Below, in pieces: positions 2,410 to 64,000 of a DNA stretch of 64,000 nucleotides (positions within the stretch are counted from its first letter, which is position 1; every line of letters begins with the position of its first letter). The position numbers were made by a program, and so were the translations under genes. The notes beneath the pieces were generated by a model, which saw only the letters and a program-made list of their open reading frames with translations, had not been told where the DNA came from and did no database searches. Source of the DNA: an uncultured Gemmatimonadaceae bacterium (lineage in GTDB: Bacteria > Gemmatimonadota > Gemmatimonadetes > Gemmatimonadales > Gemmatimonadaceae); contig CAWAGQ010000008.1 in the NCBI GenBank assembly GCA_963781585.1, forward strand, positions 192,001 to 256,000. The letters are read 5' to 3'.

Positions 2410-4635
2410 ATGGCAGCCTGCCGATCCCATTCCGTGGCACTCTGTTGTTTCCTGCTCGTCGTAGGGGCGACCGGCGGTTGCGGCGGCGGGGACAGCGGCG
2501 GGCCGGCGGCCCCCGCGACCGTCGCCGCGGTGATCGTGTCGCCCGGGTCGGCGACCTTGCTTCCGGACGACACGCTGCGCCTGACCGCGAGCCCCGTGGA
2601 CTCCCACGGATCGGCCGTCAGCGGGAAGAATCCGACCTGGTCGTCGAACGCCACGGCGGTGGCGACGGTTTCGTCGTCAGGCACCGTGACGGCTCTCGCG
2701 CCCGGCGTGGCCTCGATCAGCGCGACCGTCGATGGCAAAAGCGGCAGTGCGACGATCACGGTGAATGACCCCGGCCCGCGGATTGTCCTGGACGCCGCCT
2801 CGGCATCGGAAACCATCGGGTCGGCGGGCGGCACCGTGAGCGTCACGTCCGCCGACGGCGTGCACTACACGCTCACTGTTCCACCGGGCGCGCTGCTCAC
2901 ATCGCAGCAGATCACCATGACGCCCGTTGTGAGTGTCCGGAAGCTGGGCCTCACCGGCGGCCTGGTGGGGGGCGTGGACTTTCAGCCCAGCGGACTGCAC
3001 TTCGCGAAGGCGGCGCAGCTGCGCATCGAGATCCGGCAGCGTCCGCCAGCGGGACTTCGACTGATCGGGTTGACCTTCGAGGGAGACGCGAACCCACCCG
3101 ATCTCTCACCCGCGGCCGATAGCGGCACGGTCGCGCTGTTGCCGATCGCCCATTTCAGCGTTGGGGTCGCCGGCTTCGGCACGACCGCTGACGTCCGGGC
3201 GATCGCCGCCGCCGGTGCTGCTTTGACATCATCGGGCAAGTTCTACACCGACTCTCTGATCGTGCTCTCGGGCGACTCGACGACCAGCCAGCAAGCGTAC
3301 ACCGATGTTCTTCGGGCATGGTTCACCAACGTCGTGCTCCCACTCTTCCAGAACGCGACCACCGACGCGCAGCTCGTCCTCGCGCTGAGCGAACTCCACT
3401 GGTGGGGGACCGACACCCCGCTCGCGATCGGAATCGCTTCTCCCACGCCGGCTACGTATCCCAACGAATTCGCGCAGCTCGAACCCATCGTTGCCGCGAA
3501 GATCGGAGACGCGATCGACGGGAACAACACGGTCTGTCGCGACAACCAGAGCTTCTCAGCGTTGGCCAACGTCCTCTTCTGGGCCGATCAGGCAACCGCC
3601 CTCGGCGTCGCCACTCCCGCCTTCAATCTGGACTGGGCATCGATTCGCGCGGGACTGTGTGTCGACATCGTCCTCGTGGCCGACACCCTGCCCGACCCGC
3701 TGGTGGTCGGTACGCCGTACAGCCTGGTCACCGTGTTCGGCGTGCAGTTCCTGCAGAACGGCACGCCACAGGACGCCGCGTTCGCGATGTCGCTCCCAAC
3801 GACGTCCAACGTGCTCGACATCGCGAACCCCTCCGGCAACACCAACCTGCAGGGTCTCTATACGACCGTGGTCACGCCGCTTGCCGCCGGCGACGCGTCC
3901 ATCGTGCCCACCGCCTGCCTCATCATGCCCGGCACCCTAACGCCGACCAGCATTTGTGGGTCCCGGGAGTTGACCCGCACGTCGGTCGACGAGCTGAAAC
4001 TCCCTGGGACGTTGCCCGATGGCAAGCTCGGTGTCGCCTACTCGGCGGCGCTGTTTCCCACCGGCGGCAATGGCACCTACGCCTTCAGCCTCGCCTCAGG
4101 CCAGCTTCCGCCCGGTGTGAACATCTCGCCGTCCGGAGTGTTCTCGGGAACGCCAACGCTGCTTGGGCCCTTCTTCTTCACGGTGCGCGTGACGAGCGGC
4201 GGCCAGACTATTGAGAAGAGCTTCTCGATCACCATCGCCTCCCCACCGCCAGCTCCGCTGCACGCGGGCGCCTGGGAGAAGGACTCGCATATCTGGCTCG
4301 TGCATTGCTGCGGGGTAGTGGTCCCGCAGATGCGAGGCATCCGGCTGGAGATCTATTTCCCCGGCGACGGCACCACGCATCTCCGGGCTTTCCAGCCACC
4401 GGTGAGCCCCGGTGACACTCCAGCCTGGGACGTTGAGATCACGTCGACCAACGGCACGGATTTCACTGGAGCGAGCGCTTCCATCCCCGCGCCATTCGCC
4501 TGGGAGGGAGCGAGCCTGACGGTGCAGGGGTCGGAGCTGAGCGATGGGACGCTCTCGATATCGTGGACGCTCACGATCCCGGGTGTGGGCTTCGCCGAGG
4601 GGAGCCCGTCGCCGGACATCATTCCGCCCGGGTAG
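2410..4635 (+). CDS. Surface lipoprotein: Big_2 Ig-like domain, ZU5-like domain with HFS motif, helical region and putative Ig domain
   Basis: GAGG RBS before ATG 2410. Lipobox-like GATGGC. VAAVIVSP...TWSSNATAVATVSSSGTVTA (Big_2). TIGSAGG...LTVPPGAL...ITMTPV...FQPSGLHF...IAHFS (ZU5-like). LPDGKLGVAYS...GQLPPGVNISPSGVFSGTPT (He_PIG-like). Confidence 0.8.
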   Translation: MAACRSHSVALCCFLLVVGATGGCGGGDSGGPAAPATVAAVIVSPGSATLLPDDTLRLTASPVDSHGSAVSGKNPTWSSNATAVATVSSSGTVTALAPGVASISATVDGKSGSATITVNDPGPRIVLDAASASETIGSAGGTVSVTSADGVHYTLTVPPGALLTSQQITMTPVVSVRKLGLTGGLVGGVDFQPSGLHFAKAAQLRIEIRQRPPAGLRLIGLTFEGDANPPDLSPAADSGTVALLPIAHFSVGVAGFGTTADVRAIAAAGAALTSSGKFYTDSLIVLSGDSTTSQQAYTDVLRAWFTNVVLPLFQNATTDAQLVLALSELHWWGTDTPLAIGIASPTPATYPNEFAQLEPIVAAKIGDAIDGNNTVCRDNQSFSALANVLFWADQATALGVATPAFNLDWASIRAGLCVDIVLVADTLPDPLVVGTPYSLVTVFGVQFLQNGTPQDAAFAMSLPTTSNVLDIANPSGNTNLQGLYTTVVTPLAAGDASIVPTACLIMPGTLTPTSICGSRELTRTSVDELKLPGTLPDGKLGVAYSAALFPTGGNGTYAFSLASGQLPPGVNISPSGVFSGTPTLLGPFFFTVRVTSGGQTIEKSFSITIASPPPAPLHAGAWEKDSHIWLVHCCGVVVPQMRGIRLEIYFPGDGTTHLRAFQPPVSPGDTPAWDVEITSTNGTDFTGASASIPAPFAWEGASLTVQGSELSDGTLSISWTLTIPGVGFAEGSPSPDIIPPG

Positions 4636-4805
4636 ACGTCGGCCCGGACTGCAGCGGAAGGCCTGCAAGTAGAGCCAGCACGATCCGAGTGCTGTTCGCT
4701 GCGAGCGGCGGACTGCCAGCTTAACTTGTTCGCTGAGAGCTGATCGACCGTCCGTCCCGGGACGCGCCGCACCATGCTCCCCTCAGCCTCGGCGAACGCG
4801 CCGCA

Positions 4806-7800
4806 TTGCGACTCACTGGCACCGACCTCGTCCTCTCGGCAACCGACCTCTCCAACTTCCTCGGCTGCCGCCATCGTACCGCGCTCGACCTGGCGGCGGC
4901 GATGGGAGCTCGGGACCGCCCCTACCGCCATGATCCGCTCCTCGTCCTCCTCCGGAAGCTGGGTGAGGAGCACGAGGCCGCGCATCTCCGGTCCGTCGAG
5001 CACGACGGCCTGCCGGTCGTCCGCCTCGGCGACGTCCAGGATCGCGACGAGCGGCTGGCGCGCACGCTCGACGCGATGCGCGCCGGTGCGCCGGTCATCG
5101 CCCAGGGCGCGTTAGGCGATGACCGCTGGTTCGGATACGCCGACATTCTCCGGCGGGTGGAACGTCGCAGCGACCTTGGCGAGTGGTCGTACGAGGTCGC
5201 GGACACCAAGCTGGCGCGCGACACCCGCGCCGGGACGATTCTGCAGCTCGGTCTCTACTCGGCGATGCTGGCGGCCATCCAGGGGTCCCGCCCCGAGTAC
5301 TTCCACGTCATCACGCCCGACCCGGTCACGCCCGCCCACACGTTTCGCGTGGATGACTTCGCGGCCTACTTCCGCTTCGTCCGCCGCCAGATGATCGATG
5401 CTGTCGCCGATGAATACCCGGCGATGCTCGCCGCCAACTACCCCGATCCCGTCGAGCACTGCGAGGTGTGCCCGTGGGATCCGGAGTGCCGGGAGAAGCG
5501 TCGCGCCGACGATCATCTCTCGCTCGTAGCCGGGATCACGCGGCTGCAACGGCGGGAACTGGAGAGCAGGAGCGTCTCCACGCTCACGCAGCTCGCCGGC
5601 CTGCCGGTGCCGCTCCCGTTCAGGCCGCGTCGTGGATCCGTGGAGACCTACGTTCGCGTGCGCGAGCAGGCGAGGGTGCAGCTCGACTCACGCGGACGGA
5701 CGCCGCCACTGCACGAGTTGCGTGAGGTCACGATCGGAGAAGGGTTGTGCCGTCTTCCCGAGCCGTCGCCGGGCGATCTGTTTCTCGACCTCGAAGGCGA
5801 CCACTTCGCAATCAGCAGCGACTCCGACGCCGGGCCAGATCAACGGCGCGGACGCGAGTACCTCTTCGGTCTGGTCCGCGCCGGTGCCGATCGGAACCCT
5901 GACTACCTCAGGTGGTGGGCGTTCGACGAGCGCGAGGAGCGTGCCGCGTTCGAAGAGGTCATTGACCTGATCATAGCGGCTTTGCGCGACAACCCGTCGA
6001 TGCACGTCTACCACTACGCACCGTACGAGCCGTCGGCATTCAAGCGGCTGATGGGTCGCTATGCGACGCGCGCCGAGGAACTGGATCGTTTGCTGCGCGG
6101 TGGTCGCTTTGTCGATCTCTACGCCATCGTCCGACAGGCGATGTGGGCCGGCGTGGAGAGTTACTCGATCAAGCGACTGGAGCCGCTTTACGGCTTCACC
6201 CGCGACGTCGACCTCGGCCGCGCCAACCAAAGCCTTGCGGCGATGGAGCAGGCTCTGTGGCTGGGGCAGGCGAGGGAGCTCCCTCGTGAGGCGCGCGACG
6301 TGGTGGAGGGATACAATCGCGACGACTGCGTCTCGACGCTTCGCCTTCGCGAGTGGCTGGAGCGCGTGCGGGAGGAAGCAGTCGCCGGCGGCGCGGAGGT
6401 GCCCCGCCCGGTGGCCTCGGGCGATGCGGCCGAGCGAGCGAGGTCACCGCCCGCGATGCGCGTGTGACTGGGTTGCGCGCGCGACTGCTTGCGGACGTTC
6501 CGGAGACGCCGAGCGAACGCACCGAGGAGCAGCATGCACGATACATCCTGGCGTACCTGCTCGACTGGCATCGGCGCGAGGACAAGGCAACCTGGTGGGA
6601 GTACTTTCGCCTGCGTGATCTGGCGGAAGAGGATCTGTTCGACGAGCCGCAGGCCGTGGCCGGGATGCGCTTCGTGGAGCGGGTCGAGGTGGTGCGGCGC
6701 AAGAAGGGCGGACGGCCGACCGGCTCGGTGATCGATCGCTACGAGTTTCCGTCACAGGAAATGGAGATACGGCGAGGAGCGGAACTCCACCTGCTCACCG
6801 CTGACGCTGAGAACGCGGATACCGACGAAGGGTCCCGCGGCAGGTCCCGCACCAGCGGGACCAGGTTTGGCGAGGTCGTGAAAGTCGATCGGGCCGCGCA
6901 AACGATCGACGTGAAGAAGGGCCCCACGCAGGCGGAGAATCATCCATCGGCCGTCTTCGCGCATAAACACATCTCGGCCCAGATCCTTGAGGACGCGATC
7001 TTCCGCATCGGCGAGCGCAGCGCCCAGGACGGGCGAGTGGACGCCGGATCGTCATCGGCCGCGCGCGATCTCTTGCTCGCACGCACACCGCGACTCCATG
7101 GCGCCACCTTCGCATCGCGCGACGGCGAGCCCGTCACCGACTGCGCCGTCCGACTCGCCGGCGATCTCGACCACACGGTGCTGGCCATCCAGGGGCCGCC
7201 TGGTTCCGGGAAGACGTACACGGGTGCACGGATGATCTGTGCCCTGGTGACGAAGGGGAGGAAAGTCGGCGTCACTGCGAACAGCCACAAGGTGATCCGC
7301 AATCTGCTCGATGCGGTCGCGGAGGAAGCGGCACGGCAGAGCATTAATGTTCGGCCCTCGCACAAGGTGAATGATGGCGCCGATGACGACGACGATCGCG
7401 CTGACGGCGACGACGGTCACGCGATGACCGTTCGCGAAGTGGGTGACAATGGCGAAGCGCTTCGCCAGCTGGAGTCGGGCGATGCCAACGTGCTCGGTGG
7501 CACTGCCTGGCTCTGGTCACGGTCGGAATTCGCAGGCTCGGTGGACGTGCTGTTCGTCGATGAGGCCGCGCAGATGTCGCTCGCGAACGCCGTCGCCGCC
7601 TCGCACGCCGCGAACAGCGTCGTCCTGCTGGGCGATCCCCAGCAGCTCGCGCAGCCAATCAAGGGCAGTCACCCCGACGGCGCCGGCGTCTCGGCGCTCG
7701 AACACATGCTGGGCGGGCACAAGACCATGCCGCCGGATCGCGGCCTCTTCCTGCCCGTCACCTGGCGGCTCGCGCCGAGCATCTGCGCGTTCACGTCCGA

Positions 7801-8377: not shown

Positions 8378-9236
8378 TCCGGCACGAACAGCTTGCGGTA
8401 TTTCGACAGGTCGCCGCGAACGACTCCGGAACGAGGCTCGATGGGCCCTTCCCACCGTCCTGGTTGCGCTCATGATGCTCGCCGCAACGGCGGTGGCGCG
8501 GGGAGATGGCGGACCTGGACGCGCGCGATCGCAGGCCGGCATCAACGCGCAGCTTCTCGTCGGCCCGCTGCAGGTCCACCCGTATCGAGGTCAGCACGTT
8601 GCGCACCTCGTGGGACAGCGACGCCAGTCGCCAAGTCGATGCTGCCGACCGATGTTGGAGTGCGGGCGGCGACAACGAAGTGCTGCTTCGTGCCGCCGAC
8701 CGGTCGATCCTGCCCCACGTTCCCGCCGGGAGCCCGAACTGCCCGGTCTCCCCCGCCGGACCTCGATAGCTGCTGTGGCCTAACGCGGCGTCGCCAGCTG
8801 CGGCAGAGAATAGCGTAAACTCACCGTCGTAGGCCGCCCGCCGCCCTGGCGCGGCAGGAACCGAGAAGAGCGTCTCGGGCTTCCCACCGTCGATCGGCAC
8901 GCGCTGAACCACCGAGCCCGCCGCTGCCGTCGCAGGCAGATGCGTGTACAGATACCTCCCGTCCGCGGTCCAGTCCACGTACGACAGACTCAGATCGTAA
9001 TGGGCGACAACGCGCTCGGGGCCCCCGCTCACGGGAACGATCGCCAGGTCATGGCTCTGCGACGTACCAAGCCCCGTTTCTCTCCCGATGGCAAGCTGAT
9101 CGCCTTTGTGGTTGTCCCAGACTTCGACGCCGGGTAGCGAGGCCACCTCACGCAGCACGGGCTTCTGCGCGCCTGCGGCGAGGGGGATCATCGCGCACGC
9201 AATCATGAGGGTGCGATTCATGGCTCCGGGCTTCAT
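8374..9236 (-). pseudogene. Remnant of a secreted TolB/PD40-like propeller protein joined to a histidine-kinase H-box fragment
   Basis: GGAGG RBS before ATG 9236. Signal peptide, then LAIVPVSGGPERVV...VDWTADGRYLY...RVPIDGGKPETL. Quality decays near 8700. SHEVRNVLTSI starts at 8615. Confidence 0.5.
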
Positions 9237-9455: not shown

Positions 9456-11543
9456 CTACTGGATCACCCGCGTCGGCACCGTCCGGTTGGTGAACGTCCC
9501 GTCCCCCACAAACCCCTGCTCGTTGTCGCCCCAACAGTAGATCGCACCCGCCGTCGTCAGGCCGCACACTCCGAGCGCACCGGCCAGGATGCTCGCCCAC
9601 GTGGCTCCCGGCGGCGCCGCCACCGGAATGGGCACGTTAGTGTTGGCACCGCCGCCGTTGCCCAGCTCTCCGTCGACGTTTCGTCCCCAGCAGTATCCCT
9701 GTCCGCCGCTGACTCCGCAGCCGACGGATATGCCGGCCGACATCATGCTCCATACCGCAACCCCAGTCACCTGGACAGGCACACTGCTTCCGCCACCCGG
9801 CGGGCTTCCATCCCCCAGCTGTCCGTACAGATCGCTCCCCCAGCAGTACGCCACCATTCCCGACGTGAGCCCGCACATGGTCGAGAACATCGACGTCAGG
9901 CTCGCGAACTGCAGCGGCGCCACCCCGGTCCCTTGCGTCTTCACGACCGCGAGTGAGCCGCTCTGCGTGCCGTCGCCCAGAATGCCGCCGGAGTTGTCGC
10001 CCCAGCAGTACACAGCACGTGTGACGTTCACGATCCCGCAGGTGGCCAGATCGGTCGCTTCGACCGCGACAAAGAGCAACGGGGCCACTCCGCTCCCCAC
10101 CACTTTCGTCGGAGTGCCGCGATCGGTGGTCGTGCCGTCCCCGAGCTGGCCGAAATCGTTCCGCCCCCAGCAGTAGATCGCCTGATCGGTCGCCAGTCCG
10201 CAGGTGTGATCACCCCCGGCGCTGATCCGCGTGATCACCAGGCCGCCCGGCCCGGTGCCCGGCACCTTCGTAGGATTCGCCACGATCTGCACGCCCGGCA
10301 CCCCGGTCTCGCCGTTGAAGTTCGCGCCCCAGCAGTACACCGAGCCGTCGTTCACGCGGCCGCACCCGTGGGCTTTCCCAAGATCCACCTGGATGTAGCG
10401 CTCGGTCTCATTCACCATGTATGGCGCGGTCTCCACGTTCGCCGCTGCCGATGACCCGAGCTGGCCGTTGTAGTTCGGCCCCCAGCAGTACCACGCATGC
10501 ACCGAGCGACCGCACGCGAACGGGATGCCGTACGTGTTGCTGCCCCCCACGACCACCGCGTCGAACACCGCATGCGCGTCGAACGCCGCGCTCTCGGCGT
10601 TCACCGTCCCGGCGGTCGCCTTGAGCGTGTACCCCGGTCCCGGATGCCGCACCTTCACGTTGGTGAACGTGGCAACCCCGTCGGGAAGCAACGCCGTCGA
10701 GTTGATGTCGGCATCGAGCGTTCGCCCGTCGTCGAAGCTGTGTCCGATGCTGACCGTGACCGTGGCGCCGCCGGCCGGATTGTCGTACGTGTCCAGCGCC
10801 TTGACCTTCACGTCGGGCATCGGATCCAGGACCTGCACGTCCACGGGCTGCGTGACCCACGAGAGTTTCGCCACGGGTCCGGCGATGATGTCGAACGCCT
10901 GGCTGCTGGCGTCCTGAAGCCCCGATGACGTGGCCGCCAGTGTATAGCCGGTCGCCGCCTTTGTCATCGAGAGGCCCGAAAACGTCGCCACGCCACCCAC
11001 TGCCTGCTGGCTCACGCCTCCTGTCAACGTTGTGCTTCCGGGATTGGCCCCGAGCGCCAGTGCCACAGTCGCCGTCGACGCCGTCACAAGCAGATTCTGT
11101 GCATCGCGTACCTCGACCTTCACCGCCGGTGCAATGCCTTGTCCGGCGGCGGTGGTCGATGGCTGTACCGAAAACACCAGATGCGTCCCGTCCTGTCGTA
11201 CCGTGATCTCCGCGGACCCGCTCTTGCTGTCGACCGTGGCGGTGATCGTCGCCGTCCCGGCCGACACCGCCGTCGCCAGTCCGCCTGACGACACCGTGGC
11301 AACGCCGTTGGCCGAGGAACTCCACGAAAAAGTCTTCCCGCTCAGCACGGTGCCCTGGGAGTTCCTCGCCGAGGCGCTCAACTGCTGCGTGCCGCCGATC
11401 GTCGTGATCGTTGCCTGCGATGGCGAGACCTCCACCGTGGCCACCGCATTCTTGTCGGGACCCGAGCCACCGTCGCCGTGTGAACAGGCAGCGCCACACA
11501 CCAGGACAGCCGCAGTGACGATACGGGCGGAAAACCGAATCAT
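9456..11543 (-). CDS. Lipoprotein with Big_2/Ig-like domains and C-terminal RCC1-repeat propeller
   Basis: Lipobox CGAAC. Big_2 motif. Repeated YCWGxNxxGQLGDG and ISAGGDHTCG motifs. Confidence 0.9.
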   Translation of the reverse strand: MIRFSARIVTAAVLVCGAACSHGDGGSGPDKNAVATVEVSPSQATITTIGGTQQLSASARNSQGTVLSGKTFSWSSSANGVATVSSGGLATAVSAGTATITATVDSKSGSAEITVRQDGTHLVFSVQPSTTAAGQGIAPAVKVEVRDAQNLLVTASTATVALALGANPGSTTLTGGVSQQAVGGVATFSGLSMTKAATGYTLAATSSGLQDASSQAFDIIAGPVAKLSWVTQPVDVQVLDPMPDVKVKALDTYDNPAGGATVTVSIGHSFDDGRTLDADINSTALLPDGVATFTNVKVRHPGPGYTLKATAGTVNAESAAFDAHAVFDAVVVGGSNTYGIPFACGRSVHAWYCWGPNYNGQLGSSAAANVETAPYMVNETERYIQVDLGKAHGCGRVNDGSVYCWGANFNGETGVPGVQIVANPTKVPGTGPGGLVITRISAGGDHTCGLATDQAIYCWGRNDFGQLGDGTTTDRGTPTKVVGSGVAPLLFVAVEATDLATCGIVNVTRAVYCWGDNSGGILGDGTQSGSLAVVKTQGTGVAPLQFASLTSMFSTMCGLTSGMVAYCWGSDLYGQLGDGSPPGGGSSVPVQVTGVAVWSMMSAGISVGCGVSGGQGYCWGRNVDGELGNGGGANTNVPIPVAAPPGATWASILAGALGVCGLTTAGAIYCWGDNEQGFVGDGTFTNRTVPTRVIQ

Positions 11544-12583: not shown

Positions 12584-15500
12584 GTGTTGAAACTCCCCCT
12601 GGCGCACCGCCCAACCGGTCGCCCGTTCGCCTGGCGTACCCTCGCCCTCCTGCCCGCATTCCCCATCCTCTTCCCGTTGGCCTCCGCGCCCGCCCAAGGC
12701 GGCGCGACCGCCGGTGGGCAGACCGCGCCGCTCACCGCCGCGAACGGCAAGAAGGTCCTGACGGTGAACGATTACGCCCGGTGGCGCAACATCGAGGGCG
12801 CAGAGATCTCCAGCGACGGCAACTGGGTGGCGTACGTCCTCCGGTTGACCAATACGCTACCTAACGATTCGAAGCCGGTCCTCCACATCCTCAACCTCGC
12901 CTCCAACCAGGATGTGGCGATCGCGAACGCCAGCGACGGGACGTTTTCTCCGGACGCCCGCTGGATCGTCTACCAGGTGGATTCCATGCCGGCACGCGCG
13001 GGACGCGGCGGACGCGGAGCCGGCGCTCCCGGCGGGAATCCGCCCGGAGACACCTCCGGCGTCACGCCGCCCACCGCTCCTCCCGCTCCCCAGCCCACTC
13101 CCGGAGCATCGTCCGCCCAGGGGCGCGCTGGCGGCGCGGCCGCACCCCAGCCGATCCACCGCATGGAGCTGCGCGAGCTCGCCACCGGCCGCACGCAGCG
13201 ATGGCAGGAGATGCAGTCCGCGACCTTTTCGGCGGCGTCCACGCACCTGCTCCTGCGGCGCCGGCCCGGAGGACCGACCGGCGGCCGCGGCGGACGCGGC
13301 GGTGGACCGGGCGGTCCCGGCGGCGCCGGAGGCGGCGCGGGGAATGAGACCAACACGCCCGCCGGCACCGACGCCGTGCTGCACAACCTCACGACCGGAC
13401 GCAGCCAGTTCCTGGGCAGCGTGGGCGATGCATCCTTCAATAGAAAGGGCGACCTGCTCGCCTACACCGTCGACGCGAGCGTGAGGGACGGGAACGGCGT
13501 CTTCGTGGTCGATCTCCACAGCGGCGGCACCTTTCCGCTCGACAACGACGACCGGACCTACAACCGTCTCGCCTGGAGCGACGACGGCTCGGGTCTGGCC
13601 GTGCTCAAGGGCAAGGAAACCGACAAGATGCGCGAGCGCCAGAACGTCCTGATGGTGTTCTCCGACGTTCGTGGCTCGTTAGGCGAGCCGGAACTCACCC
13701 CGGCCGTCCTCGATCCGGCAGCTGCACCCGGTTTCCCGAAGGGATTCGTGGTGAGCGATCGCGCCCCCCTCGCCTGGAGCGAAGACAACAAGCGCGTCTT
13801 CTTCGGCACCATCCCGGAGTCGCCGGCCCAGGACACCGCCCGTCGCCGCAGTACCGATTCGATCCCGGATGTGGACGTCTGGCGCACGGCTGATGAACGC
13901 ATCCAGTCGGTCCAGATGATCCGCGCCAACGCCGACCGGAACTTCTCCTTCCGCGAGGCGTTCGACCTGGCGGCGGCGAAGTTCGTGCCGCTCTCCGATT
14001 CCACCATGCGCGACCTCGAGGTCGCACCCGACGGCCGCTGGGCGGTGGGCCGTGATCCGCGCGCCTACGTCTCCGACTACCAGGCGCCCGCGGCGGACAT
14101 TTATCGGGTGAATACCTCCACCGGCGAGCGCACGCTGATGCTGAAGGATCAGCTCATCGGACAGCACGTCTTCGGCATCTCGCCGGACGGAAAGGAGTTC
14201 CTCTACTGGAAGGACAGCAAGTTCCAGGCGTACGATCTCGATGCCGGCACATCCAGAACGCTGGGAACCGGCGCGCCCAGCTTCGTGGACGAGGACTACG
14301 ACCATCCGGGCCCCAGGCCGTCCTATGGCCTCGAAGGCTATGCCAAGGATGGCAGTGGACTCGTGGTCGCGCACAAGTATGACCTCTGGCTCCTCCCGCT
14401 CGACGGCGCCGCGCCGGCACGCAATCTCACCAACGGCGTCGGCAGCCGGGGAGAGATCCGGTTCCGCTACGTCCGCACCGAACCGATCGACTCGATGGCC
14501 CCGCGACGCGTGCGTACGGGCGACGAGATCGACCTGTCGAAACCGGTCACCCTCTCCGCCTACGGCGAGTACACCAAGAAGGCCGGCTTCTACCAGCTCG
14601 ACCACGGCCAACTGAGGGAGATCGTCTACGACGACGCGGCCTTCAGCACGCCGAATCGCGCCACCCACGCCGACAAGTTCCTGTTCACCCGGCAGACGTT
14701 CGTCGAATTCCCCGACCTCCGCGTCTCGGGGCCGGACTTCAAGGATTCGAAAAAGATCACCGACGCCAATCCTCAGCAGGCCGAATACAATTGGGGCCAC
14801 CGAATCCTGTTCGACTTCAGGAACAAGGACGGCCGCCGGTTGCAGGGCATTCTGGCACTGCCTGACGACTACAAGCCCGGTGAAAAGCGGCCGATGATCG
14901 TCAACTTCTACGAGAAGAACTCGCAGAACCTCCACCGCTACTCGGCGCCGTCGTTCCTCGCCAGCATGGGATCGTCGCCGATCGAGGCCGTGAGCCGTGG
15001 ATACATCACGATGCTCCCCGACGTCTACTTCCACACCGGCATGTCCCACAGCGACATGCTCGATTGTGTCGAGGCGGCCACCCGGAAGGTGATCGAGATG
15101 GGGTACGTCGATCCGAAGCATATCGGCATCAACGGCCACAGCTACGGCGGCGAGGGCGTGGCGTTCATCGGGACGCGCTCGCGGCTGTTCGCCGCGGTCG
15201 GCATGGGCGCCGGTGTGACCGACCTCTTCACCGACTTCAGCCAGAGTTGGGGATGGTCGTACCAGGTCACCGGTGGGAGCGGCGCCAACGGCAACCAGTA
15301 CTATCTCTATGGGCAGGGGCGGTGGGGGGTGTCACCGTGGGACAAGCCCGAGCTGTACCACTTCGAATCCGCCCTCACCCACGTCCGCGAAGTCACCGCG
15401 CCGTTCCTCATCATGCACGGCACGGCTGATCCCACCGTGTCGTTCAGCGAAGGGATGAATTTCTACAACGCCCTCCGCTACAACGGAAAGAACGCCATCC

Positions 15501-26542: not shown

Positions 26543-26837
26543 GTAGTGATGAATACCCTTGCTGAAACCCACGGGTGGAAGCGCCCGGGGCGCCCTTCGC
26601 TCCATCACACCGGATCGCGGTGAGGGTGGGCGCGCGTTCCGTGGCCAGCGGCGACGCGCGACGTCGTAGCTACGGAATGATCACCCCCTCCGCGAAGCCT
26701 AACGTGAGCAAGTGTTGCAACTCGGCACGGGACGCCACGTGCCGTGGAGAAGGGCGCGTGCCCGCCTGCACCTGGACCGGCGTTCGCTATCCACCGCGAT
26801 GACCGGGGTTCCCGGTCGACGCCCGCCCGCCAGCGCG

Positions 26838-57023: not shown

Positions 57024-57992
57024 CTAATACCGGTCCAGGTCCCTGGCCACCACCACCCGGCCGCGATACCCGCCGCGCCTCACGCCGGCAATCAGCTCGT
57101 CAGGCGTACCTCCCATCCATACAACGTGAGTGAGTACCACCAACCGCGGCCCCGCTTGTGCCGCCAGCTTCCCTACCTCCACGTCCGATGTGTGAAATGA
57201 CCGCATGTAGAGCGGCCAGTCTTCCCCGCCCGGTCGCTGCTCTCCTTGTAGCCGCGATTGGGGATAGACCTCGTGGACGAGCACGTCCACTCCAGCGGCT
57301 GCCTTCGCGAGCGCCTCACTGTAGCGCGTGTCGCCCGAGATGACGATGCTTCGACCCCGGGTGTCCACGCGATACGCGAAGGCGTACGGCCAACTGCCGT
57401 GTTGAACCGCGATCGCCGTCACCCGCACGCCGGCGCTGTCGTACACCACACCGCCCCTCACCTCGTGCACCGTGACGCGATATCCTCCCGGTGCATCGTG
57501 CTCGAGTCCAGTCACACGAATGAGGGTGTCCTCGGCCCACGCCGCGATCAGAAGATCGGTCATGCGCTGCAGTCCCGGCGGACCGTATACCGCAAGGGGC
57601 ATGCGCCGTCCCATCACCCACGACGTGAAGATCAGATCCGGATAGCCGAGCGTGTGATCGCTGTGGAGGTGCGTGATGAAGGCGGCCGTCACGCCATCGA
57701 TGGGAAGTCCGGCCGCGGCTATCCGGCGCATCACCCCCGGCCCGGCGTCGAACAGGAACACGCGGTGTCCCACCACCACGGCTGTCGCCGGACCCGAGGC
57801 CGCCGGATCGGGGACCGGCATCCCCGTCCCCAGCATCACCACGACCGTACTGTCGCCTCCGGGCATCGGCGGGCCACCAGGGAAGACCCGCTGCGCGCTT
57901 GCTTGCCCGGTGGCCAGGGTCAGCATCCCGAGCCAGGCCAGCCGCGCCCCGCGCCGACCCCGCCTCCACAGAGTGCCCCGCCCGATTGTCAT
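57024..57992 (-). CDS. MBL-fold metallo-hydrolase (RNase Z/arylsulfatase-like), exported
   Basis: MLGTG, FDAGPG, THLHSDH, ISGDT, LVHEV, FHT, LTH. Confidence 0.9.
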   Translation of the reverse strand: MTIGRGTLWRRGRRGARLAWLGMLTLATGQASAQRVFPGGPPMPGGDSTVVVMLGTGMPVPDPAASGPATAVVVGHRVFLFDAGPGVMRRIAAAGLPIDGVTAAFITHLHSDHTLGYPDLIFTSWVMGRRMPLAVYGPPGLQRMTDLLIAAWAEDTLIRVTGLEHDAPGGYRVTVHEVRGGVVYDSAGVRVTAIAVQHGSWPYAFAYRVDTRGRSIVISGDTRYSEALAKAAAGVDVLVHEVYPQSRLQGEQRPGGEDWPLYMRSFHTSDVEVGKLAAQAGPRLVVLTHVVWMGGTPDELIAGVRRGGYRGRVVVARDLDRY

Positions 57993-58008
57993 CGGAGATC
58001 CTGTCCCG

Positions 58009-58617
58009 TTAGGCACCCGGATAACGAACCCCCAGCTTGCGCAGGGCGGGTGCGGGACAGCCGTTCCACACGGTGGCGGTATTCCCGATGTAACCCAGGT
58101 CCTGCACGCCGATTCGGCTCGACCAGAACCCGGACGCCGTAAAATCCCGGAACCGGGAGAAGAACCGGACACCAGCCTCCATCCCGGCGGGCGCTCGCTT
58201 CGGCCAGGCAATATCGTCGAGAACCGCCTTCCGCTGCGCCGATGTGCATGCCGCAAACGACTGCCCGGATCGCTTCACGCACTCGCTGTCGAGCCAGGCC
58301 AGGCCCTCGTGCATCCACCGCTGCATCGACGAGCGGTCGCCGAGAATGAAATCCATGAACTCCGGCACACCGGCGTCGGTGGCGCTCCCGGATCGCGCAT
58401 CACGCGGAATCACCAGGTTCACCAGGATGCGCACTGTCCGCCATTCGTCCGCCGAAAAGTTCTTCGGCTGATACGCCTGGCCACGTCGCGCCAGCGTCTC
58501 CAGCGTGTCGCGTGTGAGCCCCGCCGCCCGATCGATATCGAGCGCGCTCACCGCGAAGTCGGCCAGCGATGCCGCCGCCAGGAATTTCAGTACATCGCGT
58601 CTCGTGACGTCATCCAT
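58009..58617 (-). CDS. Gluconate 2-dehydrogenase subunit 3 family (LacC-like) Tat protein
   Basis: TRRDVLK Tat motif. VIPRD...SATDAGVPEFMD, FF...RD.TASGFWSS, LGYIGN. Confidence 0.9.
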   Translation of the reverse strand: MDDVTRRDVLKFLAAASLADFAVSALDIDRAAGLTRDTLETLARRGQAYQPKNFSADEWRTVRILVNLVIPRDARSGSATDAGVPEFMDFILGDRSSMQRWMHEGLAWLDSECVKRSGQSFAACTSAQRKAVLDDIAWPKRAPAGMEAGVRFFSRFRDFTASGFWSSRIGVQDLGYIGNTATVWNGCPAPALRKLGVRYPGA

Positions 58618-58649: not shown

Positions 58650-60344
58650 CTAGACCTCTCCCGCCTTGCGAAGCTCCATGATTCGATCCGCGGTTCGCAT
58701 CGCCAACGCCAGAATCGTCCAGGTGGGATTCTTGTCCGCTTGTGACACAAACGGCCCGCCGTCCGCCACGAACAGGTTCTTGCAGTCCCACGCCTGCGAC
58801 CAGGAATTCACCACCGACGACTTCGGATCGCTCCCCATCCGCACCGTGCCCAACTCGTGGATGATCGAGCCCCCGGTGCTGATGCCGTATCCACGCTCCT
58901 GCGACGGCATCGGGGAGAACACTTCGCCGCCCATCTCCGACACCAGCGCGCGGAACGTCTCCTGCATGTGTTTCACCTGGTTGATCTCGTAATCGCTCCA
59001 CTTCCAGTGGAAGCGCAGCACCGGGATTCCCCAGATATCCGTGCGCTCGGGATCCAGCTCGCAATAGCAGTCCTCGCTGGGAATCTGCTCCCCGCGGCCG
59101 GAGAATCCGATGGTGGAGCCGTAGTAGCGTCGATATTCGTTCTTCAGCGACGCGCCATAGCCGCCACCCGGTTCATACCGTTCGATCCCCCCCATGAAGC
59201 CGTACGACGGCACACCCAGTCCGCCCCACACTTCGATGTGATAGCCCCGCGGAAAATCGAGCTTCTTGTTGTCCACCCACCACGGCATGTAGATGTGCCC
59301 GCCACCCACGCCATCGCAGTTGTGCGGCACATGATCCATCAGCTTCGGAACGAAGCCTGAGACGTCTGTCCCTGTGGTGTCGGTCAGATATTTCCCCACT
59401 ACCCCGCTCGAGTTTGCCAGCCCCTGCGGAAACGCCGACGACTTGGAGTTGAGCAGCAGGCGCGCCGATTCACACGCGCTCGCCGCGAGCACCACCACCC
59501 GCGCCCGTACCGTCCGGTCGCGCCCTGACGTCTTGTCGATGTACGACACGCCCGACGCCAGCCCGCGATCGTCAACCGTGACCTGGTGAGCCATCGCGTT
59601 CGTGATGATCTTCAGGCGTCCGGTCTGCATCGCCGGAAAAAGCAGCACGTTCGGGGACGTGAAGTTCGAGTTCGTCATGCACCCGCGATTGCACTCGCCG
59701 CAATAGTGACACGGCGCCCGGCTGCCTAACGGCTTGGTGATGATCGACAGTCGCCCGGGGATGCACCAGATCCCCAGCTTGTCGGCCGCCTGCTTCACGT
59801 ACAGCTCGTAGCACCTGGGCCTCGGCGGTGGCTGGAAGATTCCGTCGGGATGATTCGGCAGGTTCTCCCGGCTGCCGAAGATGCCGATCAAACGGTCGAT
59901 CCGGTCGTAGTACGGCCGGACATCTTCATACGTGATCGGCCAGTCCTCGCCCAGACCGTCGAGGCTCTTGCGCCGGAAGTCATCCGGTCCGAAACGGAGC
60001 GAGATGCGTCCCCAGTGATTGGTGCGTCCGCCCAGCATCCGGGCGCGCCACCACGAGAAGTTCGTCCCCTCGGCTCGCGTGTACGGCTCCCCCTCCACCT
60101 CCCAACCGCCGATGCACGCATCGAACTCGCCGAACGGACGCTCCGGGGTCGAGGCGCCGCGGCGCGGAGACTGGTACGGCCAGCGAAACATCGCGCTGTC
60201 CTTCGTGTTGTCCCACCAGCCACCCGCCTCCAGCACCACCACCCGCGCGCCCGCTTGCGTCAGCCGGTACGCCGCCATGCCCCCGCCGGCACCAGAACCG
60301 ACGATGCAGACGTCGTACACTTCGTTCTGGATGATACCTGTCAT
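58650..60344 (-). CDS. GMC family flavoprotein oxidoreductase (glucoside 3-dehydrogenase LacA-like)
   Basis: IVGSGAGGG, LGGRTNHWGR, CHYCGECNRGC, HELGTVRMG, KNPTWTILALA. Confidence 0.92.
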   Translation of the reverse strand: MTGIIQNEVYDVCIVGSGAGGGMAAYRLTQAGARVVVLEAGGWWDNTKDSAMFRWPYQSPRRGASTPERPFGEFDACIGGWEVEGEPYTRAEGTNFSWWRARMLGGRTNHWGRISLRFGPDDFRRKSLDGLGEDWPITYEDVRPYYDRIDRLIGIFGSRENLPNHPDGIFQPPPRPRCYELYVKQAADKLGIWCIPGRLSIITKPLGSRAPCHYCGECNRGCMTNSNFTSPNVLLFPAMQTGRLKIITNAMAHQVTVDDRGLASGVSYIDKTSGRDRTVRARVVVLAASACESARLLLNSKSSAFPQGLANSSGVVGKYLTDTTGTDVSGFVPKLMDHVPHNCDGVGGGHIYMPWWVDNKKLDFPRGYHIEVWGGLGVPSYGFMGGIERYEPGGGYGASLKNEYRRYYGSTIGFSGRGEQIPSEDCYCELDPERTDIWGIPVLRFHWKWSDYEINQVKHMQETFRALVSEMGGEVFSPMPSQERGYGISTGGSIIHELGTVRMGSDPKSSVVNSWSQAWDCKNLFVADGGPFVSQADKNPTWTILALAMRTADRIMELRKAGEV

Positions 60345-60572: not shown

Positions 60573-61598
60573 TCAGAAAACGATCGAGAGACCGAGACGG
60601 GTCGGCGTCATGATCGGCTCGATCCGGACTCCCCTGGTATCGCCGGATTCTCCCGACCGTCCGGGCTTGAGACGCGTGCGGCCGCGCGCCACCGCGGCAT
60701 CCGCCACCGTGGCCCCGATGCCGATCGCCAGGGGATAGTCGCTAGCCCAGTGGACCCCGGTGTTGACCATGGCGAATGACAGGATCCCCAGCAACGTGTA
60801 CCCCACCGGCCGCACGAACCGGTTCTCCGGATAGTTGCCCGCCACCACCCACACCGTCGCCACCGCGGCCGCCAGGTGACCTGACGGAAACGCGTCGAAC
60901 GCCGGCGTGTTGCGCGAGTAGGCCGCGAGGCTGGGGAACGGACGCCAGCGCCCGCGCGGGACCGTGGCTTCCGACGGCGTCTGCCGCCCGAACGTGTGCT
61001 TCAATCCCTGCGTGATGATACCTAACGTGAAGAGCGACTCGGTGATCTCGCTCGCGGTCCGCAGCGCCCGGTAGTCGTTATGCCACACCCCGACCACGAA
61101 GAAATGCCCCGCCACCGCCATGCTCATCCACCCGTCGCCAAGGAAGTACATCGCCGAAGCAATCGTCGTCGGAAATGGCAGCACTTTCACCCCGGCCACC
61201 ACCAGATTCGCCGACGGATGCGTCGGAGGAATGTCGAGATGCCGCGCCACGTTGCGTGTCTTGTCCAGCACCCATTCGTCGGCCGCGATCAGCCCCAGCG
61301 TACTGGTGGTGATCGCCACCCACCCCCCCACCCGATCACGACGGAAGGCGAGAGCCATCGTCCGCCCTAGCGTCCCGGGAACGTTCCGAAACGCCTGCAG
61401 GCGTCCGGGTCGCGTATACGCAAACCGGCCAAACGCCCCCAGGTCCACCTCCTGGGCCACTCGTGGCCCGCGCGACCCGTTGGGCACCGCACACGGCGCC
61501 GTGGAATCCGCGTCCGGGCAGCTGTCCTGAGCCGCCAGGACCCCCGGTACCAGGATCCAGACCACCAGTACGGGCGCGAGGCGCCGTGCGATACGCAT
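60573..61598 (-). CDS. PAP2-family phosphatase
   Basis: LKHTFGRQTP, AFPSGH, HWASD. Confidence 0.88.
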   Translation of the reverse strand: MRIARRLAPVLVVWILVPGVLAAQDSCPDADSTAPCAVPNGSRGPRVAQEVDLGAFGRFAYTRPGRLQAFRNVPGTLGRTMALAFRRDRVGGWVAITTSTLGLIAADEWVLDKTRNVARHLDIPPTHPSANLVVAGVKVLPFPTTIASAMYFLGDGWMSMAVAGHFFVVGVWHNDYRALRTASEITESLFTLGIITQGLKHTFGRQTPSEATVPRGRWRPFPSLAAYSRNTPAFDAFPSGHLAAAVATVWVVAGNYPENRFVRPVGYTLLGILSFAMVNTGVHWASDYPLAIGIGATVADAAVARGRTRLKPGRSGESGDTRGVRIEPIMTPTRLGLSIVF

Positions 61599-61669: not shown

Positions 61670-62449
61670 CTACCGCCGGCTGTTCGAACCGGCGGCCGGC
61701 GGAAGGCGCCGGAGCACGCTCTCCGCACTCAACACGCCTAACGCCGCACCCGAGAGTACGTCGCTCGTCCAGTGGTCGTTCTGATAGATGCGCGAAATCC
61801 CGACCAGCGTCGCCGCACCAAAGAACACCGCCCTCAGCGCCGTGCGATGACGCGGATGCGCCCCGCCCAACTGGCTGGCCAGCGCCGTCGCCGCCGCGAA
61901 CGCCCCGCTCGTGTGCCCGGACGGAAACGACGTGTGGCTCCCGTCGAAGAAGCCGCGCCCCGGATTGTACATGTCCGGATCCCCAGGATGACTCTTCGGC
62001 CGCCCTCGGCCGATCAGCCCCTTCGTCAGCTCCGTCAGCACCGCGCTCAGCAATACGGCATGCGCCGTCACCCCTCCCACCTGCTGCATCACACTGTCAT
62101 GACTCACCCGACCCACCAGCCACAGCGTACCACCCGTCACCAGCGGCGCCGCGCCACCGATCGAACTCACGTCCAGCGAGGCGTGCCGCAGCGTCGCCCC
62201 GCCGTGCGCGTTCAGCTCCTGCGACGCGTCCGACAGCCGAGCATCGAACAGTGACACCGTCGCCGACGCGGCCAGCGAGATCGCTCCCGCCACCATCAGG
62301 GGACGAATGCTCGCAGCCGGAGTGGGGACGCGCGTCGCGACGGTGTCAGCGCCCTGTGCCGAAACCACCCGACCGATTGCGGCTCCCATCACTATCAACG
62401 TCAACCCACAACACCTCGCAGCCATTGCCACCTCGTCGAACGAGCGCAT
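61670..62449 (-). CDS. PAP2-family phosphatase (start uncertain)
   Basis: KGLIGRGRP, SFPSGH, SRIYQNDHWTSD. Confidence 0.9.
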   Translation of the reverse strand: MRSFDEVAMAARCCGLTLIVMGAAIGRVVSAQGADTVATRVPTPAASIRPLMVAGAISLAASATVSLFDARLSDASQELNAHGGATLRHASLDVSSIGGAAPLVTGGTLWLVGRVSHDSVMQQVGGVTAHAVLLSAVLTELTKGLIGRGRPKSHPGDPDMYNPGRGFFDGSHTSFPSGHTSGAFAAATALASQLGGAHPRHRTALRAVFFGAATLVGISRIYQNDHWTSDVLSGAALGVLSAESVLRRLPPAAGSNSRR

Positions 62450-62536
62450 GCCGAGCCTGCCACTCGTCTAAGACTCGGCCCCCTCGCGCCGTGTCGCAAT
62501 GGCGGAACTCCGGAATCAGGGCTTCCCTCGCGGGAT

Positions 62537-64000
62537 TCACCTCCACCGGAGAACGCTGAGGATGTCGGAATAGTCATCCGTCCACACTCGGGTCGCCGGC
62601 TCAGGCGGGAGCGGGGTCCAGTCGGGCTGTCGCAACAGCGTCGCCAGCGTCGCCGGCTTTCTCGCCAACACCACCCACCGGCTCCCGTAGTAGAGCTTGA
62701 GCCGCTCCTCCGACGTCACATCGCGGTCGCCCACCGCACCGGGAATCCGCGCATCGTCGGCCAACCCGGTCAGTACCGGGCGCAAGTCCACGTATCGATT
62801 GCTGATGTGGAATGCCACCTCTCCACCATCCCGCAGCTTCCGGAGGTAGAGCGCCAGCGCCTCGCGGGTGAGCAGATGCGCCGGGATCGCATCCGAGGTG
62901 AACGCATCCAGGATGATCAGGTCGAACTCGGAGTCCGGCGCCTGCGTCAACGAGAGCCGCGCGTCTCCCAGAACGATGTCGATCGTGGGCGGGCAGTCGC
63001 GAATGTAGGAAAACAGAGAAGAGCGGGCGATCCGCACCACCAGCGGATCGATCTCGTAGTACGTCCAGCGCTCCCCCGTCCTGCCGTAGCACGCCGTCGT
63101 CCCCGTTCCCAGTCCCACCACCGCGACCCGCCGCAGACCACCTGACGTCGCCACGTTCTCGAAGATCTGGCCCAGCGGACCGCCACGGAAATAGTACGTG
63201 ATGGGCTCCAGCCGCCGATCGGGGTCCGTGCTCTCGGCACCGTGCGTCGTGGTGCCGTTTTGCAGCACCGTATACTCGAGGATCTGCCGCACCCGGTACA
63301 CGCCGAAGAAGCTGCGCCGTTGGAAAATGATGTCGCTGTTGGCTGCATCAGCGAACCGGGCCCCTCCGTAGATCGCGAACGCGCCGAGCGCCAGCCGGAA
63401 TGGTCGCTTCCAGAAGACGGCCACAACCAGCGCCGCCGCGCCGAGAAATATCTGCGTGCCGTACAGCCCCCACTCGTCAGGCGGTTTCGGAAGCCGGAAC
63501 CCGCCCCACACCGCCGCACATACCAGCGCCGGGAACAGCAGGTCCAGCAGCAGCACACGCCGGCTGCCGAACTGCCGTGAGAAGGACGGCCGCAATCCGA
63601 ACGCGATCACCAGCGCGAACGGATACTCGATCAGCGTGTCGTACAGTTGCGGCGCCAGGATGACGTTGAACACGCCCCCCAGGACCCCGCCCAGAGACAT
63701 CCACAGATAAAACTCGGTCAGATGCTCGACTCTGGGCCGGCTGTCAGCCAGCTCCCGGTGACAGACCATCGCTGTGACGAAGAACGCCAGGAGATGCAGG
63801 GCCGCCTGCGTCGTAATCCGACGCCCCGGGCCGGCGCAGATGGACACCATCAGGGCGAGCCCTAACGCCAGCTGCAGGAACAGCATGAAACTCCGCCCGA
63901 GTGGAGGCCGCCGCGAGAACACCAGCACGAAGGTCAACAGGTACAGCGCGAGTGGAATGACCCAGAGGAAGGGAACCGACGCGATATCGGTGCTGAGATA
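62537..64000 (-). CDS. Membrane-fused spermidine-synthase-like SAM-dependent methyltransferase (3' part; continues beyond the right edge)
   Basis: The frame is open to 64000 (YLSTDIASVPFLWVIPLALYLLTF). RSFFG, NGTTTHG, VGLGTG, YEIDP, GDARL, LDAFTSDAIPAHL, WTDDYS. Confidence 0.92.
   Translation of the reverse strand, partial: YLSTDIASVPFLWVIPLALYLLTFVLVFSRRPPLGRSFMLFLQLALGLALMVSICAGPGRRITTQAALHLLAFFVTAMVCHRELADSRPRVEHLTEFYLWMSLGGVLGGVFNVILAPQLYDTLIEYPFALVIAFGLRPSFSRQFGSRRVLLLDLLFPALVCAAVWGGFRLPKPPDEWGLYGTQIFLGAAALVVAVFWKRPFRLALGAFAIYGGARFADAANSDIIFQRRSFFGVYRVRQILEYTVLQNGTTTHGAESTDPDRRLEPITYYFRGGPLGQIFENVATSGGLRRVAVVGLGTGTTACYGRTGERWTYYEIDPLVVRIARSSLFSYIRDCPPTIDIVLGDARLSLTQAPDSEFDLIILDAFTSDAIPAHLLTREALALYLRKLRDGGEVAFHISNRYVDLRPVLTGLADDARIPGAVGDRDVTSEERLKLYYGSRWVVLARKPATLATLLRQPDWTPLPPEPATRVWTDDYSDILSVLRWR

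Follow-up and report, generated by a model that had tools for sequence, protein, structure and literature searches.

Over-represented DNA words CGTTAGGC and TCGTCAGGC in Gemmatimonadaceae: a constraint on DNA that shares features with uptake signal sequences

The stretch of 64,000 nucleotides analysed here (the window; positions 192,001 to 256,000 of contig CAWAGQ010000008.1, assembly GCA_963781585.1) belongs to an uncultured Gemmatimonadaceae bacterium, a member of a poorly studied and rarely cultivated phylum found in soil, and it is punctuated by the short DNA word CGTTAGG, which mostly extends to the 8-mer CGTTAGGC. Calls made with a codon-usage score and four long open reading frames (ORFs) added by hand give 47 genes, of which 35 have a Pfam match at E ≤ 1e-5; neither Rfam families nor tRNAs were found in the window. 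The GC content lies between 64 and 69%, and the sign of the GC skew is constant throughout. CGTTAGG is present in 22 copies, 9 on the plus and 13 on the minus strand, as compared to 2.83 on average, and at most 6, in 100 dinucleotide shuffles, and the 18 copies that extend to CGTTAGGC, 9 on each strand, stand against a shuffle mean of 0.91 and a maximum of 4. When words are ranked under Markov null models, the CGTTAGG/CGTTAGGC family takes first place in the window for each word length k of 6, 7 and 8. A first-pass annotation of this DNA had already listed these 22 7-mers and 18 8-mers, and all positions and strands were reproduced exactly. There is no conservation in the 20 bases on either side of CGTTAGG, and the coefficient of variation of the spacing is 0.76 versus 0.97 for random placement (p = 0.058).

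Most copies are written into genes, and they use several reading frames. Fifteen of the 22 7-mers are in sense orientation and read NCG-TTA-GGN. Seven of the 8-mers among them read GCG-TTA-GGC: 5110..5117 (+) in gene 4806-6467 for a TM0106-family RecB-like nuclease, 8778..8785 (-) in ORF 8220-9311, which is without a family match, 16978..16985 (+) in gene 15744-18884, 33892..33899 (-) in the Ser/Thr kinase gene 33028-34653, 40365..40372 (+) in the BNR/sortilin-like gene 39872-43096, 43972..43979 (+) in gene 43758-45068 and 61736..61743 (-) in the PAP2 gene 61670-62296. TCG-TTA-GGC is found at 13677..13684 (+) in the S9 peptidase gene, at 33328..33335 (-) in the same Ser/Thr kinase gene and at 48330..48337 (-) in the M48 peptidase gene 47112-48503, ACG-TTA-GGC at 22776..22783 (+) in gene 21842-23311 and at 32438..32445 (+) in the CtaG-like gene 32224-33024, and CCG-TTA-GGC at 59724..59731 (-) in the GMC oxidoreductase gene 58650-60344. 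The two remaining sense copies are 7-mers only: 61021..61027 (-; CGTTAGGT), ACG-TTA-GGT in gene 60573-61622, and 63861..63867 (-; CGTTAGGG), GCG-TTA-GGG in gene 62537-63997. Four antisense copies are read as CCT-AAC-G, i. e. CCT-AAC-GGG at 20552..20559 (-) in the amidohydrolase gene 19926-21683, CCT-AAC-GCC both at 25399..25406 (+) in the minus-strand gene 23405-25546 and at 40720..40727 (-) in gene 39872-43096, and CCT-AAC-GAT at the 7-mer 12860..12866 (-; CGTTAGGT) in the S9 peptidase gene. A fifth, the 7-mer 3936..3942 (-; CGTTAGGG), is read as CTA-ACG in gene 2434-4635. The minus-strand gene 58009-58617 ends on a TAA stop that is part of GCC-TAA-CG, the complement of the copy at 58007..58014 (+). 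Finally, the copy at 26697..26704 (-) lies outside the confident genes and is in frame only in a doubtful ORF of 33 codons (26670-26771). The earlier frame tally thus stood for CCT-AAC-G, CTA-ACG and the stop codon; for NCG-TTA-GGN it had 16 copies where the recount gives 15, probably because the copy at 26698 had been assigned to the doubtful 33-codon ORF.

The enrichment persists under the synonymous-codon shuffle that the first-pass annotation had put forward as a challenge to it: in 1000 shuffles of the window genes the expected numbers are 0.52 sense and 0.94 antisense copies, and 15 and 5 are observed (Poisson p = 0.003 for the antisense copies). Nor are TTA codons equally frequent in other contexts, the second outcome that had been considered: of the 18 TTA codons that the window genes contain, 15 stand inside CG-TTA-GG, compared with none of 28 in nine related loci that lack the word.

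A scan of all single-base variants of CGTTAGGC in the window showed that every position is specific except position 4, and this led to a companion word that the first-pass annotation had missed. CGTCAGGC has 20 copies versus about 5.9 expected, and the 15 that are preceded by T carry the excess. The resulting word, TCGTCAGGC, is present 15 times (7 on the plus and 8 on the minus strand; dinucleotide-shuffle mean 1.3) and differs from CGTTAGGC by C/T at position 4. Under the codon-aware null it takes second place among the words of the window (sense 6 versus 0.21, antisense 9 versus 1.31), and its own one-off variants are not enriched in the window. The simple form of a single degenerate motif, CGTYAGGC, had to be rejected: the excess of CGTCAGGC depends on a preceding T, and CGTTAGGC needs none; nor is CGTCAGGC enriched in Gemmatirosa, whose sense-strand count is given further below. 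The six sense copies are located at 2674..2682 (+, gene 2434-4635), 11283..11291 (-, gene 9456-11444), 20772..20780 (+, gene 19926-21683), 21934..21942 (+, gene 21842-23311), 25170..25178 (-, gene 23405-25546) and 52521..52529 (-, gene 51889-53121). The antisense copies are those at 9554..9562 (+, gene 9456-11444), 14860..14868 (-, S9 peptidase gene, where a conserved L-P-D-D is written CTG-CCT-GAC-GAC with a rare proline codon), 20002..20010 (-, gene 19926-21683), 28052..28060 (+, gene 27679-29115), 29581..29589 (-, gene 29336-30265), 51167..51175 and 51407..51415 (both -, gene 50916-51851), 57097..57105 (+, gene 57024-57926) and 63474..63482 (+, gene 62537-63997). TCGTCAGGC makes use of all five frames open to it: 7 of 13 xPD[DE] sites, for instance, are written as CCT-GAC-GA, and 3 of 13 SSG sites carry it. 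Real TGA stop codons are supplied by the CGTCAGG core at 35403, 30914 and 26836 (one 8-mer and two 7-mers). When both 8-mers are pooled, the genic copies of the window are 19 sense and 16 antisense, and the base that follows either 8-mer is a purine in 27 of 33 cases (p = 3e-4). Thus, CGTTAGGC(R) and TCGTCAGGC form a small word family that is wider than the earlier annotation had it, since both the companion word and the preference for a purine after the word had escaped notice there.

The next question is who carries these words. Relatives were surveyed by a scan with the S9 peptidase of the window (12488-15673), which found its best relatives, with 65-78% amino-acid identity, in metagenome-assembled genomes (MAGs) of Gemmatimonadaceae. 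One of these, the 23-kb locus L014, has 2 copies of CGTTAGGC and 6 of TCGTCAGGC, in the same frames as in the window. The other high-GC loci of the scan, from Gemmatimonadota and Acidobacteriota, have 3 and 18 copies, respectively, in 658 kb, which is background level for both words. The S9 peptidase query had no Gemmatimonadota match in a plasmid collection; a protein search of this collection led to the two megaplasmids of Gemmatirosa kalamazoonensis KBS708, of which nine 50-kb stretches (L081-L089) were analysed. In these 450 kb, CGTTAGGC is present 295 times, 145 times on the plus and 150 times on the minus strand, at the same density on both megaplasmids, and 295 of the 298 7-mers extend to the 8-mer; TCGTCAGGC is present 16 times. 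The density of CGTTAGGC is therefore 0.66 per kb in Gemmatirosa and 0.28 per kb in the window, as compared to 0.0046 per kb in the 658 kb of other high-GC loci. The word thus characterises a clade to which a cultured type strain belongs, and its recurrence in independent assemblies (the window, L014 and the two megaplasmids) bears out the idea of the first-pass annotation that it is a genome-wide signal. The balance of the two words differs between the members: Gemmatirosa uses CGTTAGGC only, the window uses both, and L014 mainly TCGTCAGGC with two copies of CGTTAGGC.

The Gemmatirosa sample provides the numbers to follow the word through coding sequence. In 355 called genes with 133,160 codons from the nine stretches, the codon-aware null predicts 3.25 sense and 1.72 antisense copies, and 144 (44-fold) and 66 (38-fold) are observed. 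This null errs on the cautious side, since the TTA and CCT codons that come from the word are shuffled along with the rest. These 210 copies lie wholly within called genes; of the other 85, 9 overlap TAA stops, roughly 18 overlap TAG stops and about 58 are non-coding, so that the word is about twice as dense in non-coding as in coding DNA. A purine follows the word in 244 of the 295 copies. The word occurs in all six frames, real stop codons included, yet the frames are used very unequally: it is written in 137 of 559 [APST]LG sites, 58 of 117 xPN[ADEGV] sites, 7 of 332 xVR[HLPQR] sites and 8 of 201 [CGRS]LT sites. The window has the same ranking (13/57, 3/10, 0/26 and 0/40, respectively), and in both samples the two latter frames are written 0-4% of the time. 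The GC-CTA-ACG frame is scarce relative to the TTA frame in the window (Fisher p = 6e-4) and in Gemmatirosa (p = 3e-12). The imprint on codon choice is strong: 137 of 178 TTA codons of the Gemmatirosa genes stand in the word, and so do 19 of 65 TAG stops (as CGT-TAG-GC) and 9 of 18 TAA stops (as GCC-TAA-CG). The constraint thus acts on DNA: the two strands receive the word to the same extent, at any place where coding sequence tolerates it. This agrees with the first-pass annotation, which had placed the constraint on DNA and not on protein: the word is enriched antisense, in non-coding DNA, across stop codons and in the TTA frame, and in Gemmatirosa both orientations are affected alike.

With TTA codons so concentrated in the word (15 of 18 in the window, 137 of 178 in Gemmatirosa) and 69% of the genic Gemmatirosa copies in sense orientation, one might think of a signal in RNA or translation, i. 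e. TTA codons that are tolerated or wanted only in the context CG-UUA-GGC, as in bldA-like regulation or context-dependent decoding. We consider this very unlikely and the least probable of the explanations: under the codon-aware null the antisense copies of Gemmatirosa are as enriched as the sense copies, the intergenic density is about twice the coding density, and both stop-codon frames are used. Moreover, 9 of the 15 copies of TCGTCAGGC are antisense, the TTA-bearing genes have unrelated functions, and the window has no Rfam family or tRNA. Regulatory TTA codons of the bldA type are contradicted by the enrichment in antisense, intergenic and stop-codon positions.

The strand distribution speaks to another class of signals. 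Chi (in E. coli GCTGGTGG) and the FtsK-orienting polar sequences (KOPS) are, like the word, asymmetric 8-mers that are over-represented and embedded in genes, and Chi shares with it the length of 8 nt, the lack of a palindrome and a kilobase-scale spacing. If the word were a recombination hotspot like Chi or guided a translocase as KOPS do, it would be read directionally by RecBCD/AddAB or FtsK, and the window does encode a RecB-like nuclease and a superfamily 1 (SF1) helicase (4806-8377), although these are not RecBCD/AddAB equivalogs. Chi and KOPS are strongly skewed to the leading strand, however, and the word is not: there are 9 copies on each strand of the window despite the constant sign of the GC skew, and 145 and 150 in Gemmatirosa. 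Orientation tracks only the strand of the gene, and does so symmetrically: the ratio is 91:41 in plus-strand and 71:32 in minus-strand Gemmatirosa genes, 69% sense in both, so that no bias is left once gene strand is taken into account. In addition, an enrichment of about 40-fold is far above what is known for any Chi sequence. The earlier statement that the word lacks a Chi- or KOPS-like polarity is thus confirmed, and a signal of this kind is very improbable.

The constraint also reaches the encoded proteins. In Gemmatirosa, [APST]LG tripeptides are found 4.19 times per 1000 codons versus 2.86 expected from composition (2.72 for the reversed tripeptide), and PN[ADEGV] 1.03 times versus 0.48 (0.54 for the reversed one); no such excess is seen for the tripeptides that belong to the two little-used frames. 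Orthologous sites could be compared for the S9 peptidase, the only gene of the window with orthologs among the 80 loci; four sites were compared. At 12860, the asparagine of CCT-AAC-GAT is present in none of 35 aligned orthologs, which have alanine, glycine, aspartate and others, mostly after a CCG or CCC proline codon. At 13677, the leucine of TCG-TTA-GGC is kept in four of four aligned orthologs as CTC or TTG, and the adjacent glycine is found in none of them. At 14861, within the companion word 14860..14868, the proline codon CCT alone makes the word, and 37 of 39 high-GC orthologs use CCG or CCC; L014 and L025 use CCT and therefore have the same TCGTCAGGC at the orthologous site. In this one gene, two copies thus fall on variable residues and one is purely synonymous within a conserved motif, and judging from these alignments the copies look derived. 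Taken together, the word is written via rare codons (TTA and CCT), apparently via amino-acid replacements at variable positions and via the choice of stop codon, with a force sufficient to shift the usage of codons and tripeptides.

Is the word part of a larger element? A longer repeat around it was rejected, as the flanks in the window are unconserved and most flanks in Gemmatirosa are unique (237 of 294 copies have no similar partner), and repeats of the repetitive extragenic palindromic (REP) or miniature inverted-repeat transposable element (MITE) type were rejected in the lack of extended conservation or flank similarity and with copies that are mostly genic. Integron attC sites deserved attention: the attC core consensus is GTTRRRY / RYYYAAC, and GTTAGGC fits it. 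Unlike the word, attC sites need paired inverted cores 50-150 bp apart; the word is mostly genic, and the companion GTCAGGC is off the consensus. Inverted core pairs with the arrangement and spacing of attC account for 6 of 348 adjacent pairs, which is chance level, and attC sites were therefore rejected. Close pairs as a whole are not in excess in Gemmatirosa either (37 versus 39 expected, 14 of the 37 inverted), and the same holds for terminator-like inverted pairs. Some intergenic regions are rich in copies. In the stretch L084 (plasmid 2, 130001-180000), the region from about 3 to 45 kb has a remarkably low coding density of 0.73 and many intergenic copies in both orientations, and four or five copies of the word are followed some 30-40 nt on by a shared GGATTCTCGCGCGTAG-like element. 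At 33626-33725 of this stretch, GCCTAACG and CGTTAGGC form a pair with about 13 of 16 inverted flank matches and an attC-like shape. A non-coding 15-bp tandem repeat at L088 47547-47600, with at least four exact copies of a unit containing CCGTTAGGCATCCCG and CCGCTAGGC variants, also carries the word.

On a larger scale, the copies of Gemmatirosa are distributed more evenly than a Poisson process would give: counts per 5-kb bin have a variance-to-mean ratio of 0.64 (p = 0.004), and they rise with the local GC content (Spearman +0.36, p = 5e-4). The longest word-free stretch is L083 22513-31286, 8.8 kb with a GC content of 0.694, the lowest there. Its genes, for a LacI regulator, a 3-keto-disaccharide hydrolase, a TonB-dependent receptor and a member of the SusD family, form a Bacteroidota-style polysaccharide utilisation locus. 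The stretch is consistent with foreign DNA that lacks the word, as a single anecdote.

An even distribution and equal density on both megaplasmids would suit the binding site of an abundant protein that organises chromosome or replicon or otherwise binds DNA (a nucleoid-associated protein, a condensin-loading site, a mark of self), kept by selection. The evidence that the word acts at the DNA level, symmetrically and in all frames fits this idea just as well, the purine after the word and the tolerated pyrimidine at position 1 recall a protein-DNA interface, and a few intergenic direct arrays, spaced at 11-16 bp, combine the two words. On the other hand, we know of no bacterial nucleoid protein for which a non-palindromic 8-9-mer at thousands of copies has served as the site. 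The fast turnover of the word between relatives is also less expected of a core architectural function. The cyanobacterial octamer HIP1 (GCGATCGC) offers a partial parallel: Xu, Lawrence and Durand have proposed it as a protein-binding site of this kind, and two related over-represented octamers per genome are known there as well. A periodicity at 10-90 kb is the mark of HIP1; the stretches analysed here measure 50-64 kb. We regard a binding site of this kind as possible, if doubtful, and rank it second.

The two words differ by C/T, and they vary between relatives as the specificities of restriction-modification systems do. Both properties would be in line with a neutral ratchet of mutation and repair, in which a cytosine-5 methyltransferase and a short-patch mismatch-repair nuclease convert near-cognates into the word. 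Elhai is said to have proposed such a methylation/repair ratchet for HIP1, and Dcm and Vsr act in this way on CCWGG in E. coli, where an excess of this site shows how abundance can be set at the DNA level by the specificity of an enzyme. One of the variants of the word in Gemmatirosa lends the ratchet some further support. On the sense strand, three one-off variants stand out: TGTTAGGC (26 versus 1.28), CGTTGGGC (43 versus 6.2) and CGTCAGGC (16 versus 4.1). TGTTAGGC, the top variant with 20-fold enrichment on the sense strand of L081-L089, is the expected deamination product of a methylated first C. CGTTGGGC, 7-fold enriched in these stretches and on the sense strand only, reads NCG-TTG-GGC and is thus a synonymous neighbour of the TTA form, from which the word might have arisen or into which it might decay.

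Several observations make the ratchet unlikely. A ratchet of the Vsr type fixes one mismatch at one position and gives a modest enrichment, whereas the word is enriched about 40-fold, an order of magnitude above the CCWGG excess, and TTA arises from CTC or CTG in two steps. As both CGTTAGGC and TCGTCAGGC are enriched in the window, neither is simply the sink of the other. No methyltransferase or Vsr domain was found among the 47 window proteins. [quoted passage not shown] An m6A or N4-methylcytosine (m4C) site is thereby rejected for Gemmatirosa, and of the methyltransferase motif that the first-pass annotation had considered this part is unlikely. For HIP1, Xu et al. argue from conservation that biased repair does not maintain the word. 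We place the ratchet third.

The closest counterparts of the word are the uptake signal sequences (USS) of the Pasteurellaceae and the DNA uptake sequences (DUS) of the Neisseriaceae. Like the word, these are short and non-palindromic, are found at roughly 0.3-1 copies per kb on both strands equally, lie mostly in genes with a strong frame bias, and inflate tripeptides. They fall on poorly conserved residues, a trait that the word may share to judge from the S9 peptidase gene. They are also clade-wide, have single-base dialects and are scarce in DNA that is likely to be foreign. Findlay & Redfield describe a strong reading-frame bias in all three uptake sequences studied, an orientation relative to transcription that is unimportant, an approximate doubling of the encoded tripeptides, and copies that sit at poorly conserved residues and are missing from genes without homologs in relatives; each of these traits has a counterpart here, which for residue placement comes from the S9 peptidase gene. 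HIP1 resembles the word as an octamer with a tens-fold or greater over-representation in genes and with second words in some genomes; Xu et al. 2018 give 15-300-fold, with variant or second octamers in some genomes, and according to a 2026 preprint transformation is enhanced by HIP1, for which the role of an uptake sequence is proposed. HIP1 is palindromic and a methyltransferase target, whereas the word is asymmetric and absent from the m6A/m4C motifs of Gemmatirosa. The likeness to uptake sequences and HIP1 that the first-pass annotation had drawn is thus borne out by density, enrichment factor, frame bias and tripeptide inflation.

We suggest that CGTTAGGC(R) with its companion TCGTCAGGC is a lineage-specific tag of double-stranded DNA like the uptake signal sequences. 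By analogy with these systems, we rank this explanation first and give it a probability of roughly 35%. The word would be read by a sequence-specific DNA-binding protein and its copies would accumulate by biased fixation: a DNA receptor at the cell surface, belonging to a type IV pilus or competence system, would prefer fragments that bear the word, recombination of these fragments would spread new copies through the population, and selection would remove those copies that damage proteins. CGTTAGGC and TCGTCAGGC would then be dialects of one recognition specificity that shifts within the clade. More tentatively still, CGTTAGGCR/TCGTCAGGC might represent an independently evolved uptake system, which would be the first in the Gemmatimonadota and the first asymmetric one outside the Proteobacteria.

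A number of points weigh against an uptake tag. [quoted passage not shown] The gene 19014-19436 of the window encodes a PilA-like type IV pilin of 140 amino acids, which is weak support at best, and type IV pilins are common in non-competent bacteria; ComEA, ComEC, DprA or a minor-pilin receptor were not found among the 47 proteins of the window. The favoured frame uses TTA, the rarest codon of the genome, and the GC-CTA-ACG frame is nearly absent (0/40 and 8/201) though it is one synonymous step from CTG. The use of TTA differs from the correlation of frame use with preferred codons in Findlay & Redfield. The 24 one-mismatch variants are barely enriched as a class in Gemmatirosa (313 versus 269), as opposed to the graded over-representation with mismatch load that Bakkali 2007 describes for uptake sequences. 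The word is also shorter, 8-9 nt versus 9-12 for USS and DUS, and its host belongs to the soil Gemmatimonadota. Inverted pairs of neisserial DUS act as terminators, and for the word inverted close pairs are not in excess. Finally, the open-access library searched yielded no uptake or transformation experiments with Gemmatimonadota and no link of this phylum to uptake sequences, nor any description of these words or of word over-representation in Gemmatimonadota or Gemmatirosa, on which the Gemmatirosa genome paper is silent.

Thousands of copies of a short word are known from only a few lineages, with USS, DUS and HIP1 as the examples and Chi and KOPS as weaker ones. A piece of the machinery that handles DNA has come to light through each of them, and the word described here is as extreme: it accounts for about 80% of TTA codons, for half of the TAA stops of Gemmatirosa and for a 1.5- to 2-fold shift in two tripeptide classes. 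Since it is carried by a cultured type strain whose genome is finished and whose methylome is published, the question of its function is directly testable. If the word is an uptake tag, soil Gemmatimonadaceae including Gemmatirosa kalamazoonensis would be naturally competent and would prefer their own DNA, and the series from TCGTCAGGC in L014 via both words in the window to CGTTAGGC alone in Gemmatirosa would record the co-evolution of tag and receptor. It would then also be a genetic tool for the phylum, as the word added to constructs should improve uptake. If it is not, a novel type of DNA-binding system that acts across the genome would be indicated. In either case, the word is a practical marker with which such genomes can be binned and DNA of recent acquisition recognised in them, and inferences in this clade that are based on codon usage or on TTA codons must take it into account.

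Some further observations concern the surroundings of individual copies and other repeats. The gene for a PIN-domain toxin (26838-27251, minus strand) has a TGA stop that overlaps a CGTCAGG copy, and a copy of CGTTAGGC lies in the gap of about 300 bp downstream (window 26312-27251). At 4806-8377, the TM0106-family RecB-like nuclease, which has an RNase_H_2 fold, adjoins the SF1 helicase (AAA_11/AAA_12), and the latter has a weak, sub-threshold similarity to anti-phage helicases. The gene of the PilA-like pilin is followed by one for a small Smr-domain protein (19014-19865). The idea that the relatives L001, L004, L007, L008 and L016 have dispersed words of their own was rejected, as their top words are local tandem repeats: L004 3313-3365 and 6551-6564, L008 9841-9931, L016 4365-4430, L001 6259-6484 and L007 9859-10003, with periods of about 13, 9, 7, 21 and 36 bp and unrelated to the word. 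Finally, the unrelated word CATCCTGTC is present in 15 copies in the 50 kb of L082, in tight inverted clusters at 1118-1297, 9252-9398 and 46529-46613, which look like a separate intergenic repeat family.

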